The notes below the pieces were generated by a model. The model saw nothing but the letters and a program-made list of their open reading frames with translations. It was not told the origin of the DNA and ran no database searches. From Candidatus Zixiibacteriota bacterium (GTDB taxonomy: Bacteria > Zixibacteria > MSB-5A5 > GN15 > FEB-12), in the NCBI GenBank assembly GCA_040753875.1, contig JBFMDV010000027.1, forward strand, positions 1 to 64,000: DNA of 64,000 nt, in the 5' to 3' direction. Below, one piece after another: positions 1 through 6,974 of this stretch (position 1 is the first letter of the stretch; every line of letters begins with the position of its first letter). The position numbers and the translations under genes are program-made.

Positions 1-205
1 GATGGTGACGAAGGTTCTGGAGGGTGTGAAGTTCACAGACGGGATTGAGGACAGGAACACGAAAAACAATCAGATCGAAAAGCACGCTGCTTGAAAATCA
101 AATTTACACAACTCTTGACATGAGCTCTTATCCGAATACTTATATGGCACTGCGGATTACGTAACATTTGACAGATTCTATACTGCCTCCTTTGCTGGCG
201 CTAAT

Positions 206-511
206 GTGGCGGCGGCTGTAGCACCGACGCCGTTTGGGAAGACAAGTGCATTGAAAGGAACGCTTCAGTTAACAAGCAGGGCCCGTAGCGTCGATCGCGT
301 CCTGAAGTTAGCGCCGAGGTGGCTGGGAAAGGGTTATACCGAGATCAGTCCGGGTGTGTACAGATCCGCAAGCGGACTGAGAGGATTTCGGATGACGAGT
401 TCTGATTTGCTTGGAAGAGGTCTAGGCGGAGTTTCGCATGTGCATTTTGAGACCTATTTGACAGCAGGGGCAAGGTATGCCTACAAGAATTTCCATGTGG
501 CCATCTACTGA
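206..511 (+). CDS. orphan polymorphic-toxin C-terminal cassette 1 (5'-truncated; frame open from 95)
   Basis: Shares an N-terminal junction motif (N/D)VA-A-(V/I)-(A/T)-PTPFGK..A.KG with a second segment at 729..1136, after which the two sequences diverge. Starts with GTG at 206 and has no convincing RBS. Lies in an AT-richer island. Confidence 0.35.
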   Translation: MAAAVAPTPFGKTSALKGTLQLTSRARSVDRVLKLAPRWLGKGYTEISPGVYRSASGLRGFRMTSSDLLGRGLGGVSHVHFETYLTAGARYAYKNFHVAIY

Positions 512-520
512 GGTGGTACG

Positions 521-793
521 ATGAGTACCCGCCATGTTGCGAACGTGCCAATTGACTTCCAGAAGGATGGGATAGCCCAATTGCTCATGGAAGTGATGGA
601 GGCGACTGACAAGGACCGAGGCGCTTTCTTGTATTACCTTCTTGCTGATGGTGGCACCAACGGCTTTGACGATTGGTTTCCCGACAGACAAACGCTTGAG
701 GAAGTGGCCCTCGAATTATACGGGGTAGACCCCAAGTCTTGGAAAGAGTTTAGAGGGCCGTTTCCTGGCTATACCGGAGGGAGGAATCGATAG
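521..793 (+). CDS. small acidic protein, candidate immunity protein for cassette 1
   Basis: 90-aa ORF beginning 10 nt after cassette 1, on the same strand. It is acidic and cytoplasmic-like. The immunity role rests on position only. Confidence 0.3.
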   Translation: MSTRHVANVPIDFQKDGIAQLLMEVMEATDKDRGAFLYYLLADGGTNGFDDWFPDRQTLEEVALELYGVDPKSWKEFRGPFPGYTGGRNR

Positions 794-911
794 TGCCCAA
801 TCACCGCGCCCATTCGTCGCGAGGATTGAGAGGAATCCAACGAGCATAGGCGATGTAGCGCTTGCTATCACACCCACACCGTTTGGAAAGGCCGGAGCTG
901 CAAAGGGGCTG

Positions 912-1136
912 ATGACGCCAGCGAAATTCTTTGGGGCTAAGACATTTGCTGAAATGAAATCACTTCTAAATGCCAAGTATGGTGCTGCTGTCTTTGAAAA
1001 TAACAGATTCGCGAACTTTGTTACACCTCGTGGGCGTGTATTTCATTTACATATGGATCAATTTCATGCGCCTCACATTACGTCCTATATGAAAGGATTC
1101 AGCGAAAACGCGAAGACATACTTTCTTGCATATTGA
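912..1136 (+). CDS. orphan polymorphic-toxin C-terminal cassette 2 (5'-truncated; frame open from 729)
   Basis: In-frame translation upstream of the called ATG reads ...GDVALAITPTPFGKAGAAKGLMTPAKFFG. About 12 of 20 residues match the cassette-1 junction, and the C-terminus is divergent. Confidence 0.35.
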   Translation: MTPAKFFGAKTFAEMKSLLNAKYGAAVFENNRFANFVTPRGRVFHLHMDQFHAPHITSYMKGFSENAKTYFLAY

Positions 1137-1443
1137 GGTTCAAATGAAGAAAATGAGAGTCCTCATCAAGGGCGCTAATGCCGACCTGAATTACTTGATT
1201 GAACAGATAGAGCTTGCGCGTTCACTCAGTTGGAAGGAAACTAATGAGATAGCGTACTATCATCATTGTATGATCTGTGGCTACACGTTCAACCCAAACG
1301 ACACATCACAGAAATACCACGCAGGTTCTTCGAGCTCACGGGCTTGGCTCGATCCAGACTGTTACCAACGGTTTATCGTTGCAGATGGGATTCCGGATTT
1401 ACTGGATAAAGCTTTTGAAGTAGACGAAGAATCGACAATGTAG
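1126..1443 (+). CDS. small protein, candidate immunity protein for cassette 2
   Basis: 105-aa ORF overlapping the cassette-2 stop by 11 nt, on the same strand. The immunity role rests on position only. Confidence 0.3.
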   Translation: MHIEVQMKKMRVLIKGANADLNYLIEQIELARSLSWKETNEIAYYHHCMICGYTFNPNDTSQKYHAGSSSSRAWLDPDCYQRFIVADGIPDLLDKAFEVDEESTM

Positions 1444-1965
1444 TCAAAATCGCAGCCTTGAGCGAGTAAGTGAGTGGTAGCCCGTAGCACATCTGCAATG
1501 ATGTTTGTCAAGGGCTGTGGTAAGCGTGGCATTCCTTATGACAACGGTGTCCTCCTTGCCACTTTCGACCAAAGGGACAGCGTGAAAAAGCTCTGCACAT
1601 CACGAGGCGATTCCGTGTCGTGACATATGATCATGGTCATCGGTGGGAAGACAACATTCTCCTCCGCAACCGCATCGGTGTGATAGCAGACCATCGCTAC
1701 TGTGGCAATGAGACGATACAACCATATCAGATTCCCTGTTCGTACGAGCGAAAGTATAATGCGTAATCGTGTATCCATCACGGGATTGAGTGCCACCTGC
1801 TTCATTTCTCCTTTCGAGCTGTGGATCCATATAAGAGGACCAGGTATGCACAAGTCTAAACCTCTGGCGAGTGAATTTCACTTGTGATTGCTACCTCATA
1901 TCAAGTCAATCGGACACAGTAGCTCTTGGCGAGTGCCCAGTCAGTGAGCTTAGTGATTACCACCA

Positions 1966-2451
1966 TCACGACAACCAACAGACAAGGCGACTAGCGAACT
2001 CCAATAGGGCAACAATCGGCAGTCCCATTAACAGGTACCGACCACCTTTAACCCGAGGGAAGAACCGCTCGTACTCGTGTGACCCTGGGATCAGATTGCC
2101 ACGGAGGAAAGACGGCCAGAAGATCCTCTGTGCGTCAACCGCAGCCGACAAACCCATAACTCCTAAGGTGACCATCCACAATATAACTACTCCATACTGT
2201 ATCTTCTGACTGCACATATACACTCCGAAAACATCCCTCAATCCGACACAACGAATAAGAACGTATAGGGTCGGAATATACATGCCCAAGATGATCTTGC
2301 TGCGTAGCGCCCTGAGTTCGAGGATTCTTTTAGTCACCCGAGTCTCACCAAGAAAACCACTCAAAGTAGAAGTCGAAACCGAAGCTAATCGATGGCGCGC
2401 CAATACTAAATCCTGCTCCACCTCCGCCGCCAAAATCACCGTAACCTCCAA
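1966..2451 (-). CDS. small hydrophobic membrane protein, candidate immunity protein for the Rhs C-terminal toxin (true start probably an internal Met near 2280)
   Basis: Lies immediately downstream of the Rhs C-terminal toxin on the same strand. Contains two or three predicted transmembrane helices. The N-terminal part of the ORF overlaps the toxin end, so the start is uncertain. Confidence 0.3.
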   Translation of the reverse strand: MEVTVILAAEVEQDLVLARHRLASVSTSTLSGFLGETRVTKRILELRALRSKIILGMYIPTLYVLIRCVGLRDVFGVYMCSQKIQYGVVILWMVTLGVMGLSAAVDAQRIFWPSFLRGNLIPGSHEYERFFPRVKGGRYLLMGLPIVALLEFASRLVCWLS

Positions 2452-3766
2452 CGCCGGAGACTATTCCTGTTGCCTGAAAGTCCAATATGACGCCAGCATC
2501 CTGGTCTGGGTTATAGTCTATAACAGACCCAACAGTCACTACTGGACTTGGCGCTCCGACACCGAACCCTAAGCCAAGATGCGCGACTACTTGATCGTCC
2601 TTTTGGTCTGAATGAGTCCAAGTCCCTCCAATGCTAAGACCGATACCGGCTACCCCCGGTGCTGGCCAAATCGGGATGACGACGCTCACGTCGATAAAGC
2701 CCTCCTTGGGAGAACTCTTCGCGGGAGGTTCGCTGCCGGGCGGTCCGAACCAGATTGGGTCTTCTTTGTGTTCCCATCGTCTGTTTCCGTCTATCGTAGT
2801 GACCGTGGGTGTACGCCAACGGCCCATCCCAATCATCGGATCATTGCCATCGTTCACGCCAATATCATGTATCCAATCGGAGTGGTCTTGGTTTGAGTAA
2901 GACATGCCGGTAGGATCGCGTTTCCATGGGTTCACCCACTTAAAATCACTCTGTCCGGGTCGCCTCGTTCCAGTATTTGTGCTCGTCCAAACGAAGTTCC
3001 TTCCCTCACCGCGACAATTCTGGTCATAGTAGTCCTGCTGGTTCTGTGCCTCAATCGCGGCATTCTCAGCCTTATTGAACTCGCGCCAATAGGCTCGAAT
3101 CTCCTCTTCCGTCGGTGGTGGCGGAATCGGGTAGGCCGTTGTAAGACCAGACGGATCATAGAGCATCACCGGATTCCCCTCAGCGTAGCTGTACGGCGAG
3201 GCTCCTGCCGGAATAGGGTCAGGAGCCAGGAACCGTCCCAGTTCTTTCCCGTAATACCGCGGGCCAAAGTCCAACTGTGCCGTCTTGTCCAACTCTTTCC
3301 CTATAAACTGCCGATAGGTTCGGTTCGCTCCTGATATCGAGTAAAACCCACCATACGGGTAGTACTCCCACATTGCACAGGCCGGTACCCCGGTTCCCCT
3401 GACCACTCCATGCACCGAGCCGAGATAGTCCGTTACCAGGACGTTCAATGAATCCAGCGCCAGCGTGTAGTCCCGCCGCGCCAATAGTCGACCGAGACCA
3501 TAGATGTTCACCTGGCTCACGGAAATCGGGTTGTCCAACTCCAGCACCACCTGCCCGCCGGACCAGATGTAATATCGCACTTCTTCGCGGTTCTGCCAAT
3601 ACCCGCCACCGCCGGGGCCGCTGAGACCTTCCACTTGGCTCCCACTAATCGCAAGCGCCGATTCGCCCCCCGGTAACAACCCTTCAGTCCCGCCACCACC
3701 CGTATCCGGAGGAATGTACACCTGATACCGGTAAATCTGCTTTACTTTTTCGCCGCTCGAATTCAA
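2345..3766 (-). CDS. Rhs/YD-repeat core C-terminal fragment fused to an unrecognised C-terminal toxin domain (orphan, 5'-truncated Rhs)
   Basis: Contains terminal YD repeats and the Rhs repeat-associated core (YYPYGG..., RQFIGKELDKTAQLDFGPRYYGKELGRFLAPDPI, then the hallmark DPSGL at aa 204-208). A 265-aa divergent C-terminal domain follows (nt 2345..3142), ending in a Gly- and aromatic-rich tail. Only 473 aa long, whereas a full Rhs protein exceeds 1000 aa. Confidence 0.7.
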   Translation of the reverse strand: MNSSGEKVKQIYRYQVYIPPDTGGGGTEGLLPGGESALAISGSQVEGLSGPGGGGYWQNREEVRYYIWSGGQVVLELDNPISVSQVNIYGLGRLLARRDYTLALDSLNVLVTDYLGSVHGVVRGTGVPACAMWEYYPYGGFYSISGANRTYRQFIGKELDKTAQLDFGPRYYGKELGRFLAPDPIPAGASPYSYAEGNPVMLYDPSGLTTAYPIPPPPTEEEIRAYWREFNKAENAAIEAQNQQDYYDQNCRGEGRNFVWTSTNTGTRRPGQSDFKWVNPWKRDPTGMSYSNQDHSDWIHDIGVNDGNDPMIGMGRWRTPTVTTIDGNRRWEHKEDPIWFGPPGSEPPAKSSPKEGFIDVSVVIPIWPAPGVAGIGLSIGGTWTHSDQKDDQVVAHLGLGFGVGAPSPVVTVGSVIDYNPDQDAGVILDFQATGIVSGVGGYGDFGGGGGAGFSIGAPSISFGFDFYFEWFSW

Positions 3767-3771
3767 ACTGT

Positions 3772-3895
3772 GCCGTCAGCCGTCTCTGGCTGACGGCTGC
3801 CTCAAGCACGACTGAAGTCGGGCAGAGACGCCCGACTTCACCGCCGCTTCGCGCGGCTACACCGTATACCCCGTATCCCACAGCGAGCTGTGGGG
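3772..3895. repeat. cluster of GC-rich hairpins (palindromic repeat family)
   Basis: Three hairpins: gccgtcagcc-gtctct-ggctgacggc at 3772..3797, gaagtcgggc-agagac-gcccgacttc at 3814..3839, and cccacag-cgag-ctgtggg at 3877..3895. The first two are the two stem variants GTC(A/G)GGC of one family and carry reverse-complementary loops. Confidence 0.6.
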
Positions 3896-3907
3896 CACCC
3901 GTCCGAA

Positions 3908-5443
3908 TTACACCGTGTACAACTCCGTGATCTCGTTGTTGTCGGAGGCGTTGTAGACTTTGAACAGTTCCTGCGACAACGTCGTGTCGCGGATCAGGTT
4001 GATCCGGAACTTGTTCGCTTTCATCACTCGGTCGATATGATTCGTCCCGTTCTCAGTCAGAAACGAGCCGAGATTCGGGTTCACGATCAAATGGAACTTG
4101 TCGAACTTCTTCGCTGCCCGCGCCCGCAAAAACCACCGCTCGATCTTGGTCGCCATGTTCTCCTTGGACATGATTCGCCCCGCTCCGGCACAGTGCGGAC
4201 ACGGTTCGGACAGCGTATGCATGTGCGAGGGGCGCACCCGCTCACGGGTCATCTCGATCAGCCCAAAGTCGGTCACCGGATTGATCGCCCGCTTGGCGCG
4301 GTCATGACGAAACGCGTTACGGAACTCATCGTATAGCCGACGGCGGTTCTCGCGGCTGTACATGTCGATGAAGTCGCAGATAATCAGCCCGCCGATATCG
4401 CGGAGCCGAATCTGCCGCGCGATCTCGCGCGCCGCCACGATGTTTGTCTCGAAAATCGTATGCTCCTGGTCGCGGCTCCCTACGAAGCGGCCAGTGTTGA
4501 CATCGATAGTAACCATCGCTTCGGTCTGATCAATGATGATATAGGCGCCCTTCTTGATCCAGACTTTCCGTGACAGCATCTTTTCGATCTCCGGCTCCAG
4601 TTGATGCTGGTCGAACAACGGCGCGGTCCCCTTGTACAGGTGAATCCGGTCTTTGAGGTGCGGCGTCACCTGGCGCGCGAAGGCGATGATCTTCTTGTAT
4701 GCCTCGCGGTCATCGATGAGAACGCGCTGGACGTCGTCGGTGAACACATCGCGGATCAACGAAGTCACCATCTCGGCCTCTTTGTGGATAAGCGCCGGGG
4801 CGGGCATGGTGTCCGCTTTCCGTTTCAGTTTCGCCCAGAGCTTGAGCAGACGCTTGATATCCGCCTTGAAATCATCTTCCTGCTTCCCCTCCGCTTCGGT
4901 GCGGATAATCAGCCCGAACCCCTCCGGCCGGAGCGGCGCGACGATCTTCTTGAGCCGTTTCTTCTCCCCCCAATCGGTGATTCGCTTGGATACATGCACA
5001 TGGTCGTCATCGGGGACAATCACGAGATACCGCCCGGGAATCGAAATCTCCGAGGCGACGCGCGGTCCCTTGGTGGAGATTGGCTCTTTGATCACCTGAA
5101 CCAGAATCTCCTGATTCCGTTTCAGAACGGTCTCGATCCCTTGACGGCGGGTCTTGCGCACGATCTCGGCCGGTGCTTCTTCTTCGACATCTTCGGAGTC
5201 GAACCGTCGGCTGTAATCCTTGCCGATATCGGAGGAGTGCAGATAGGCTGCTTTCTCCGTTCCGATTTCGACAAACGCCGCCTGCATACCGGGCAGGACC
5301 GTCTTGATTTTTGCTTTGTAGATGTCCCCCACCATGCGTTCGGTGTCGGGACGTTCCACCTGCAGCTCGACCAGCTTGTCATCCTCGAGGATGGCAAGAC
5401 GGGTTTCGTACTCGGTGGAATTGATAAGAATTTCTTTTTTCAC
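3908..5443 (-). CDS. rng: ribonuclease G/E family protein (Rng-like)
   Basis: S1 domain followed by an RNase E/G catalytic domain (DFGLIEMTRER, CPHCAGAGRI). 511 aa. Overlaps fmt by 4 nt. Confidence 0.85.
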   Translation of the reverse strand: MKKEILINSTEYETRLAILEDDKLVELQVERPDTERMVGDIYKAKIKTVLPGMQAAFVEIGTEKAAYLHSSDIGKDYSRRFDSEDVEEEAPAEIVRKTRRQGIETVLKRNQEILVQVIKEPISTKGPRVASEISIPGRYLVIVPDDDHVHVSKRITDWGEKKRLKKIVAPLRPEGFGLIIRTEAEGKQEDDFKADIKRLLKLWAKLKRKADTMPAPALIHKEAEMVTSLIRDVFTDDVQRVLIDDREAYKKIIAFARQVTPHLKDRIHLYKGTAPLFDQHQLEPEIEKMLSRKVWIKKGAYIIIDQTEAMVTIDVNTGRFVGSRDQEHTIFETNIVAAREIARQIRLRDIGGLIICDFIDMYSRENRRRLYDEFRNAFRHDRAKRAINPVTDFGLIEMTRERVRPSHMHTLSEPCPHCAGAGRIMSKENMATKIERWFLRARAAKKFDKFHLIVNPNLGSFLTENGTNHIDRVMKANKFRINLIRDTTLSQELFKVYNASDNNEITELYTV

Positions 5444-6399
5444 AAATGCTCCCGAGCCTGGGTCACAGGCTCTCCCAGAACTTCCCCCGGTTGAAGTCTG
5501 AATCCGTTGATAAATGACACGCCGTCCATCTCCCCTTTACCTTCCGGCACCACTCTGGTCAGCTCGACAGCCGAATGGCTGCACTGCACCAGGAGTCGTT
5601 TGCGTTCGGCCAGTACGGTCCCGGGACGCGTGTCTGAATTTGTTGCGATGTCGGCCACGTTACAGGCCAGCACCTTGAGTCGTTTTCCCCGGCAACTCGT
5701 AGCGGCCCCGGGGCGCGTGGAGAGTCCACGCACAAAATTGCGGACATTGCGTGCCGGGAACCCGAAATCGATAAACGAGTTTTCCGGCGTGATCTTGGGC
5801 GCTGCGCCCGCCTGACGGTCATCCTGCTGGATCGGCTGAAGATTCCCGCTTTCGATCATCTCAAGCGTGCGCACCAGAAACGGTCCGGCCAGCGATGATA
5901 GCCGCGTGTAGAGCGTGTCGAAAATGTCGTCATCGTTGATCGCCACCTTTTCCTGAAGGATCATGTCCCCCGTGTCCACGTCCTTCCGCAGGAAGAAGCT
6001 GGTGAGACCGGTTTCGGTGTCGCCGTTGATAAGGGCCCAGTTGATCGGTGCCGCACCTCGATACCTGGGCAGCAGTGAGGCATGAACGTTCATGGAGCCG
6101 AGTCGCGGCAGGGTGAACAACCGTTCCGGCAGAATCCGGAACGCCACCACCACGAACAGATCGGCTTTCAGCTCCGCCAGCCGTTCGTACAGCTCATCCG
6201 ACTTGAGTGATGCCGGGGTCAGGACAGGCAGGCCGAGCTTTTGGGCATGCTGCTTTACCGGGGTGGTAAGCAGATGTCGTCCTCGGCCGGCCGGTTTGTC
6301 CGGTCCGGTCACCACGGCCAGGATGCGATGCCGGCTGTGGGCTAAATGATCGAGCGGACCCCGGGCAAACTCCGGGGTGCCCATATACACCACGTTCAT
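5440..6399 (-). CDS. fmt: methionyl-tRNA formyltransferase
   Basis: VVYMGTPEFA N-terminus and the SLLPRYRGAAPINWALING formyltransferase motif. Sits in the conserved def-fmt arrangement. Confidence 0.9.
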   Translation of the reverse strand: MNVVYMGTPEFARGPLDHLAHSRHRILAVVTGPDKPAGRGRHLLTTPVKQHAQKLGLPVLTPASLKSDELYERLAELKADLFVVVAFRILPERLFTLPRLGSMNVHASLLPRYRGAAPINWALINGDTETGLTSFFLRKDVDTGDMILQEKVAINDDDIFDTLYTRLSSLAGPFLVRTLEMIESGNLQPIQQDDRQAGAAPKITPENSFIDFGFPARNVRNFVRGLSTRPGAATSCRGKRLKVLACNVADIATNSDTRPGTVLAERKRLLVQCSHSAVELTRVVPEGKGEMDGVSFINGFRLQPGEVLGEPVTQAREHL

Positions 6400-6467
6400 A
6401 CTGGGATTAAGCGCGGACGGGCAACCTCATGTCATCGAGGCGCCGTATGGCATCACACTGCGGGAAA

Positions 6468-6974
6468 TCAGAGAGCGGCGGCTAATCGTTTCAGCCGCCC
6501 CTTCAACAGAGTTCGGGCGATCGGCGAAATGTAGTCAATGAACAGTTTCCCCTCGAGATGGTCATACTCGTGCAAAATTGCGCGGGCCACCATGCCCCGG
6601 GCCGTCATCTCAAATGACTGGCCGTTCACATCGAGCGCCCGGATGGTTACATGCGCCGGACGGACGATCTTCTGGTAAATCCCCGGAAACGACAGGCACC
6701 CCTCCTCGAGTTCAATGGCCCCGCTCGTGCTCACGATTTCCGGATTGATAAAGACCCTGAGGGATTCATTGATGTCGACGGCTGAGAGGTCGACAAGAAA
6801 CACTCGCCTTGGCACGCCAATCTGCACGGCAGCCAGGCCCAAACCCTGAGCTTGGTTCAGCGTGTCCGTCATATCGGACACCAAATCTTTTACACCCTGG
6901 TCGACAGTCTCGACCGGTCGGGATATTTCCCGCAATACCGGGTCGCCGTATTTGACGATCGGTCGCTCAGCCAC
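6468..6974 (-). CDS. def: peptide deformylase
   Basis: GIGLAAVQIG, EGCLSFPG and HEYDHLEG motifs. Confidence 0.9.
   Translation of the reverse strand: MAERPIVKYGDPVLREISRPVETVDQGVKDLVSDMTDTLNQAQGLGLAAVQIGVPRRVFLVDLSAVDINESLRVFINPEIVSTSGAIELEEGCLSFPGIYQKIVRPAHVTIRALDVNGQSFEMTARGMVARAILHEYDHLEGKLFIDYISPIARTLLKGRLKRLAAAL

Follow-up and report, generated by a model that had tools for sequence, protein, structure and literature searches.

The first 1,443 nt of a contig from a Candidatus Zixiibacteriota bacterium (GenBank assembly GCA_040753875.1, contig JBFMDV010000027.1) hold two same-strand reading frames that lack usable start codons, share a short protein junction containing PTPFGK, and are each followed by a small open reading frame (ORF). 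These frames (segments 1 and 2, translated as tails 1 and 2, followed by ORF 1 and ORF 2) were analyzed within a window of 64,000 nt, that is, the whole stretch of DNA examined (positions 1 to 64,000, forward strand). The region is probably one end, now decayed, of a polymorphic toxin locus of the RHS type, comprising a first module cut by an insertion sequence (IS) and a second module that is an orphan cassette. Evidence for this comes from the domain that ends tail 1 (toxin domain 1), which recurs at the C-terminus of RHS proteins in other genomes, together with homologs of ORF 1.

Toxin Domain 1 and Its Linkage to ORF 1

The four products of the region (two tails and two small ORFs) were concatenated into one query, and 1.84 billion representative proteins were searched with it exhaustively by phmmer, giving 395 matches. 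All but three of the best 150 of these 395 were to tail 1 residues ~45 to 129, the three being to the small ORFs, and the tail 1 matches among these 150 lay at the very end of proteins of 68 to 2,917 amino acids (aa). A profile search with the toxin 1 family gave 364 further or overlapping proteins, and the domain was five or fewer residues from the C-terminus in 220 of 228 proteins. Long carriers were RHS/YD proteins with SpvB, TcdB_midN, FG-GAP, DUF6531, PKD, PT-HINT, or PT-TG modules upstream. P0013, P0114, and P0143 are RHS proteins carrying the domain, with P0013 serving as the full-length archetype (1,769 aa, RHS core at residues 1430 to 1513, and an ORF 1 homolog downstream). Judged by sequence, toxin domain 1 belongs to a widespread family of C-terminal toxins, and its terminal position in these proteins, RHS carriers included, bears out the proposal of a first-pass annotation that segment 1 is a 5'-truncated C-terminal module of a polymorphic toxin. 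No model in Pfam or NCBIfam covers the domain, and a literature search on its sequence motifs found no papers. A word-indexed homolog search returned nothing for either tail, the families surfacing only in the exhaustive search.

Invariant or near-invariant residues of the family (tail 1 numbering) are L62, G72, Y73, E75, G79, V80, R82, S83, R88, Q89, F90, R91, M92, D96, H107, E111, N124, and H126. Using a 30-sequence alignment, AlphaFold2 modeled tail 1 residues 48 to 130 with a predicted local distance difference test score (pLDDT) of 95 to 98. The closest solved fold, a weak match, was the CdiA-CT toxin of Escherichia coli A0 34/86 in complex with CdiI (PDB 5T86), which a 2026 preprint treats as a BECR fold and for which no mechanism has been published. 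Because this nearest solved fold is of the BECR type, RNase activity is a reasonable but unproven guess for the modeled toxin domain 1.

Six foreign loci carrying the toxin 1 domain were inspected (L001, L003, L005, L006, L009, and L010), and in five of them an ORF of 75 to 92 aa homologous to ORF 1 lay directly downstream of the domain. These homologs follow P0041 in L001, P0019 in L003 (75 aa), the full-length 1,769-aa RHS protein P0013 in L006, and P0223 in L010 (90 aa), while the homolog in L005, P0002, is 55% identical to ORF 1 and is preceded by a toxin tail. A hidden Markov model (HMM) built from the foreign downstream ORFs only scored the window's ORF 1 at 44 bits, and the downstream ORF of L010 scored 30 bits against an HMM of the others. 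At the sixth locus, L009, a 76-aa ORF occupies the equivalent place and has no detectable similarity to the family (2 bits with the ORF 1 HMM), so that either the immunity protein has diverged past detection or a different protein neutralizes the same toxin family. The toxin 1 domain of L009 (positions 4001 to 4876, GCA_015222075.1) sits on a 208-aa RHS-core fragment. Pfam has no model for the ORF 1 family. Hence, the linkage of segment 1 to its small ORF, as first proposed from the window, is conserved elsewhere, and ORF 1 is the probable cognate immunity protein of toxin domain 1 by sequence linkage.

A Shared Junction Resembling a Known Pre-Toxin Linker

The two translated frames aligned without gaps over 21 residues, 12 of them identical (BLASTP E = 9e-6; NVAAAVAPTPFGKTSALKG versus DVALAITPTPFGKAGAAKG), with a Smith–Waterman score of 66 that none of 2,000 shuffles reached. 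In the six-frame translation of the 64-kb window PTPFGK occurred only twice, at nt 224 and nt 873, once in each of the two plus-strand frames (frame 2, open from 119 to 511, and frame 3, open from 729 to 1136). At the DNA level the copies diverge in many synonymous or third positions, indicating that the junction is conserved at the protein level, where the shared linker tail follows the pattern ..A[VI][AT]PTPFGKxxAxKG. Past the junction the tails diverge completely, with an hhalign probability of 0.25 between tail 2 and the tail 1 family. A common junction followed by complete divergence, as described in the first-pass annotation, is therefore real. A candidate third, inverted copy (inverted repeat 863 to 883 / 1668 to 1688) was rejected as chance because its translated frame is full of stops.

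Segment 1 aligned with residues 1650 to 1697 of the RHS protein P0013 (SQWMYGTSVVNTES..VAMIVLPTPVGKAK; score 54, reached by 0 of 1,000 shuffles) from tail 1 residue 4 onward, and the P0013 junction, which reads SQWMYGTSVVNTESSEFQDADTVTAVAMIVLPTPVGKAKVVNV, also aligned with the tail 2 junction (score 48, 0 of 1,000 shuffles). Upstream of the toxin 1 domain its carriers have PT-HINT, a direct DPxGL motif, GLGNIG-type linkers, or members of a set reading ...(I/V)(I/V)Pxx(x)GxxGK.... P0058 is of this last kind and contains a Pfam-verified PT-TG domain (PF14449) whose model match ends ...AGVVPGGKGALKG, with which tail 1 aligned at a score of 48 (0 of 1,000 shuffles) and at the same position relative to the toxin. 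The window junctions are like PT-TG in lying directly N-terminal to a toxin domain, in predicted disorder, and, for segment 1, in aligning with the common ending ...(I/V)xPxxGKxxxxKG seen in P0058. They differ in having no nominal TG, and segment 2 retains only the last ~19 residues. PT-TG is described as a disordered linker found in 312 architectures (2026 survey, PMC13483458), a description that the low-confidence AlphaFold2 model of tail 1 residues 1 to 47 (pLDDT <50) fits. By sequence, the junction looks like the last part of a pre-toxin linker of the PT-TG kind, and we use "PT-TG-like" rather than filing it as a PF14449 member; it is probably a lineage-specific variant of a linker type already described.

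This assignment revises the initial suggestion that PTPFGK may mark an undescribed toxin family, since the motif aligns with PT-TG-type linker ends that precede the same toxin elsewhere. The exact PTPFGK junction was not found elsewhere in 185,579 species genomes or in the metagenomes of JGI, so that no other genome in these collections pairs the literal motif with alternative C-termini, as would be expected of such a mark. Scanning the species genomes for PTPFGKxxAxKG (a 39-bit pattern) gave one match, which fell in a junk frame on a Gemmatimonadales contig of high GC content, and scanning the JGI metagenomes for AxA[VI][AT]PTPFGK (a 40-bit pattern) gave one, off-frame inside an integrase gene. 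Both matches, in such contexts and no more numerous than expected by chance, were rejected.

The junction could instead be an N-terminal extension of the toxin domains themselves, for example for entry or immunity binding, with the two toxins being distant homologs. It does lie only ~8 to 10 residues before the first strand of the toxin in segment 1, P0013, P0195, and others. Most members of the toxin 1 family, however, lack the junction and have PT-HINT, a direct DPxGL, or GLGNIG-type linkers in its place, the junction is modeled as disordered, and domain 2 shows no similarity to the toxin 1 profile, which makes this explanation improbable.

A Probable IS256-Family Transposase Tail on the Left

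When 7.3 Gb of plasmids were searched by tblastn with the 30 residues of the gene tail that stops at nt 94, a single match was obtained (E = 1, 23 residues). It lies at the very C-terminal end of a protein annotated as an IS256 family transposase on pP73C of Celeribacter indicus. The compared C-termini (...PKVIEGIKFTDGIEHTNDTENRAA in Celeribacter and TKVLEGVKFTDGIEDRNTKNNQIEKHAA in the window, each followed by the stop) are at equal distance to the stop codon and have the ending ...AA in common. The Celeribacter protein itself matched the transposase model NF033543 (E = 3.6e-90), which ends at residue 384 of 423, before the compared tail. The end of the Celeribacter element, ...CAAGCATAGCTC, lies 32 nt past the stop codon and abuts a target duplication of 9 bp, while in the window ...GACATGAGCTC ends 33 nt past the stop, at nt 127. 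The likeness thus comprises the transposase tail, the distance from stop to end (33 versus 32 nt), and a terminal ...CAT(G)AGCTC. The difference is that the window holds only 127 nt of the element, with the transposase core, left inverted repeat, and target duplication outside it. The 64-kb window contains no second copy.

Homology of tail 1 to the RHS toxin P0013 starts at the very next codon, nt 128, and the nine positions just past the apparent IS end (128 to 136) read TTATCCGAA. On the sequence comparison above, the gene tail most likely encodes the last residues of a transposase of the IS256 family, and the right end of its IS probably falls at nt 127, its left end being outside the window. 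Since the RHS-toxin homology starts exactly where the IS appears to end, the insertion probably cut tail 1 within the linker of a toxin gene, making tail 1 a 3' remnant rather than an orphan displaced by recombination. Segment 1 had initially been taken as open from nt 95, but a TGA at 116 to 118 closes the frame upstream, and it is open only from 119 to 511. A perfect TTGACA hexamer (115 to 120) within the presumed IS right end faces outward, toward ORF 1 and the remnant of the toxin gene. At a distance of 16 to 18 nt there was no good −10 element, and the hexamer was not reported by the promoter scan.

These observations bear on the first explanation offered for the region, namely that both segments are orphan cassettes displaced downstream of an intact toxin gene lying to the left, with PTPFGK marking an undescribed toxin family. 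The succession of start-less tail, small ORF, start-less tail, and small ORF is the classical architecture of such cassettes, comparable arrays occur in L003 and L010, and Pfam does not recognize the junction. The module architecture therefore stands, but a left neighbor that looks like an IS256-family transposase and IS end, with RHS homology beginning right there, speaks against displacement of segment 1. As the literal motif is also nowhere else in the genome and metagenome collections and aligns with PT-TG-type linker tails before the same toxin in other proteins, we regard the explanation as unlikely in its original form. A full-length toxin gene may nonetheless lie beyond the IS.

Start Codons, Ribosome-Binding Sites, and Annotation

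The absence of usable start codons from both segments, as proposed at the outset, was confirmed. The earliest in-frame ATG, GTG, or TTG codons are GTG 206 in tail 1 and ATG 912 in tail 2, positioned inside and beyond the junction, respectively, and segment 1 has no such codon upstream of GTG 206. Each segment is indeed followed by a small ORF on the same strand, and each ORF has its own ribosome-binding site. TGAGGT precedes the ATG of both by 5 to 6 nt, so that the stop of the toxin frame overlaps the Shine–Dalgarno sequence; GAGGTGG lies 5 nt before the ATG of ORF 1, overlapping the stop of toxin 1, and TGAGGT lies 5 nt before that of ORF 2, overlapping the stop of the 729 to 1136 frame. For ORF 2, ATG 1144 is a likelier start than the TTG at 1126 first chosen, and its 99-aa product corresponds to NCBI MEW6051492.1. 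ORF 1 is MEW6051491.1 (AB1644_10575) and ORF 2 is MEW6051492.1 (AB1644_10580), and since these accessions and locus tags are consecutive, tail 2 is wholly unannotated by NCBI.

If GTG 206 and ATG 912 were used, the tails would be intact small toxin genes forming stand-alone toxin–antitoxin-like pairs with the small ORFs. Both codons exist in frame, and the TTGACA in the IS end is directed into segment 1. Neither codon, however, has a convincing, properly spaced Shine–Dalgarno sequence, the NCBI pipeline calls neither ORF, and no product starting at either position is on record in the protein collection. Homology to secreted RHS toxins reaches upstream of GTG 206, and a start at ATG 912, beyond the junction, would leave the conservation of the junction unexplained. 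Internal starts are thus very improbable, and we retain the reading of start-less remnants.

Module 2 as a Probable Orphan Cassette

In its layout module 2 matches module 1, down to the Shine–Dalgarno sequence that overlaps the stop codon. It also resembles the orphan P0019 of L003, whose frame opens right after a stop at the start of a PT-TG-like region. The 58 nt between the ORF 1 stop and junction copy 2 have no similarity to segment 1. We read module 2 as a genuine orphan cassette, with putative toxin and immunity roles that follow from position only.

Domain 2 had no match in a word-indexed search of 5.8 billion proteins or in Pfam, NCBIfam, PDB sequences, or plasmids, and it was absent among the best 150 of the 395 matches of the exhaustive search. 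Tail 2 and ORF 2 likewise gave no tblastn match in plasmids, and for ORF 2 the sole match above E = 2e-7 among the matches listed from the 1.84 billion representatives was itself. The single-sequence AlphaFold2 model of tail 2 was poor (pLDDT 45.7). Domain 2 was also considered as a diverged toxin 1 and rejected, both on the hhalign result and because tail 2 scored 0.4 bits with the tail 1 HMM, a value that 72 of 500 shuffles also attained. The suggestion that segment 2 is a toxin/immunity module consequently holds as far as the shared junction followed by a small ORF is concerned, but domain 2 and ORF 2 are without detectable relatives. In ORF 2, HHCMICG is followed by H and further on by DPDC; this CxxC...H...C arrangement could be zinc-binding, and no family matches it.

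Related Arrays and Neighboring Genes

Features of the region are listed in Table 1. Its GC content is 44 to 52% (window positions 1 to 2500), compared with 56 to 62% in the neighboring genes for RNase G, formyltransferase, and deformylase (3500 to 6500), consistent with a horizontally acquired or variable island. Rfam had no match within the window.

Table 1. Features of the toxin-remnant region (window coordinates)
Feature	Coordinates	Strand	Basis or remark
Probable IS256-family transposase gene, 3' end, 31 codons including stop	2..94	+	tblastn and position
Probable IS right terminal region, ending ...CTTGACATGAGCTC at nt 127	95..127	+	Holds TGA 116-118 and outward TTGACA 115-120
Pre-toxin (PT-TG-like) linker remnant of toxin gene 1	128..259	+	Alignment with P0013 and P0058
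Junction copy 1, NVAAAVAPTPFGKTSALKG	203..259	+	Inside linker remnant
Toxin domain 1, 83 residues and stop, widespread C-terminal toxin family	260..511	+	
Small ORF 1, 90 aa, probable cognate immunity of toxin domain 1	521..793	+	Linkage in other loci
Junction copy 2, DVALAITPTPFGKAGAAKG, sole pre-toxin remnant kept by module 2	852..908	+	12 of 21 residues identical to copy 1
C-terminal domain 2, 75 residues and stop, putative toxin	909..1136	+	Position only
Small ORF 2, 99 aa, putative immunity of domain 2	1144..1443	+	Position only

A second, convergent toxin-type gene lies at 2345 to 3766 on the minus strand (MEW6051494.1, 473 aa). It encodes only the last YD repeats and the RHS-associated core (residues 135 to 208, ...YDPSGL), followed by a C-terminal region of ~265 aa that ends in a glycine-rich/aromatic tail, and it has no PTPFGK junction. 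Downstream of it is an unannotated minus-strand ORF with hydrophobic stretches (1966 to 2283, possible starts at 2283 or 2217), and an annotated 89-aa ORF, AB1644_10585, occupies 1536 to 1805 on the same strand.

Among the foreign loci, L010 (positions 1 to 4902, Thermopirellula anaerolimosa, BAAHYX010000007.1) is a textbook array in which a 2,710-aa RHS protein with a faint PT-TG and a weak Ntox37 is followed by ORFs of 92 and 98 aa, then by a 206-aa orphan consisting of a PT-HINT fragment and the toxin 1 domain, and finally by the 90-aa ORF 1 homolog. In L003 (positions 1 to 1816, a Logan contig of DRR685429) a start-less orphan with a complete PT-TG-like region and the toxin 1 domain, its frame opening directly after a stop, comes after a further toxin/immunity pair consisting of a toxin tail and a membrane protein of 148 aa, with the 75-aa ORF 1 homolog downstream. 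In L005 (457 to 1703) P0002, the homolog closest to ORF 1, is followed downstream by a fragment like a REP-associated/IS200-like transposase and then by two ORFs that may be a further toxin/immunity pair, one of 132 aa with the HExxH motif HETVHLWQH and one of 156 aa.

Discussion

The region has several traits of polymorphic toxin loci. One 21-residue junction precedes two C-terminal domains without detectable similarity. Domain 1, unlike domain 2, is found at the extreme C-terminus of large proteins elsewhere, among them RHS, Tc-like, and PT-HINT carriers, and a conserved immunity gene directly downstream is present in the form of ORF 1, a role that ORF 2 could fill by position only. YD repeats, an RHS-associated core, and the PxxxxDPxGL motif are absent from the frames 119 to 511 and 729 to 1136; such features are present in the toxin 1 relatives P0013 and P0114 and in the separate convergent gene of the window. 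Compared with the Rhs/YD-repeat loci with orphan modules of Enterobacteria and Dickeya (Zhang et al. 2012, PMC3482391), the region has in common a variable C-terminal toxin after a conserved region, an immunity gene immediately downstream, and start-less cassettes that keep a short conserved piece. Its toxin 1 domain is moreover carried by genuine RHS proteins (P0013, P0114, and P0143). In contrast to those loci, the window frames have neither an RHS shell nor DPxGL, the retained homology being that of the linker tail downstream of the RHS core, and the first module appears to have been cut by an IS rather than displaced.

Taken together, these comparisons suggest the following course of events. 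An IS256-family element would have inserted into the pre-toxin linker of a toxin gene, with its right end at about nt 127, reducing that gene to its last 127 codons (128 to 511), which would encode 44 residues of PT-TG-like linker and the 83-residue toxin domain. The cognate immunity gene of toxin 1 would be 521 to 793. Downstream, an orphan cassette would consist of a 19-residue remnant of the same linker (852 to 908) fused to an unrelated 75-residue domain (909 to 1136), with 1144 to 1443 as its putative immunity gene. In Rhs and CdiA loci, a downstream orphan retains a conserved piece, and homologous recombination with the main gene can replace the expressed toxin/immunity pair. By analogy, the shared linker tail may serve here as a handle for homologous recombination by which the orphan toxin/immunity pair could be swapped onto the main gene. 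The start-less tails would be silent, not translatable alone, while the small ORFs, having their own ribosome-binding sites, may still protect against the toxins of neighbors.

Several findings weigh against this account. Behind the IS256 assignment stand positional arguments and a tblastn match over 23 residues whose E-value of 1 is not significant by itself, and both the left IS end and any target-site duplication lie outside the window, as does ~9 kb of the 73,083-bp contig. The Pfam PT-TG model failed to match either of the junction fragments (E ≤ 10) or the complete tails (E ≤ 1), in a search in which the positive control, P0058, scored 34.6 bits; the same model also misses P0013, P0195, and P0015. 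Tail 2 aligned with the PT-TG of P0058 at a score of 27, which 98 of 1,000 shuffles equaled and which is not significant, and module 2 as a whole has neither a homolog nor a usable model, its toxin/immunity nature being purely positional. Weighing these points against the conserved toxin 1/ORF 1 linkage, the protein-level conservation of the junction, and the coincidence of the apparent IS end with the onset of RHS homology, we consider an IS-cut module 1 followed by an orphan module 2 to be the probable origin of the region. A stronger, joint claim is more doubtful than this, namely that toxin 1 and ORF 1 are an undescribed, widespread BECR-like pair, that domain 2 and ORF 2 are a functional pair of a new family, and that both form a silent reserve for recombination.

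The practical gain is modest, and the locus is otherwise an ordinary polymorphic-toxin remnant. With it, the well-known architecture of orphan toxin/immunity modules gains an example from Zixibacteria, along with a probable case in which an IS insertion mimics a displaced cassette. Such novelty as there is, also modest, comes from a toxin/immunity family pair that has no model in Pfam or NCBIfam and from the second pair, a singleton. The toxin domain has hundreds of members and, like its small immunity family, would lend itself to curation and testing; domain 2 and ORF 2 form a candidate new toxin pair.

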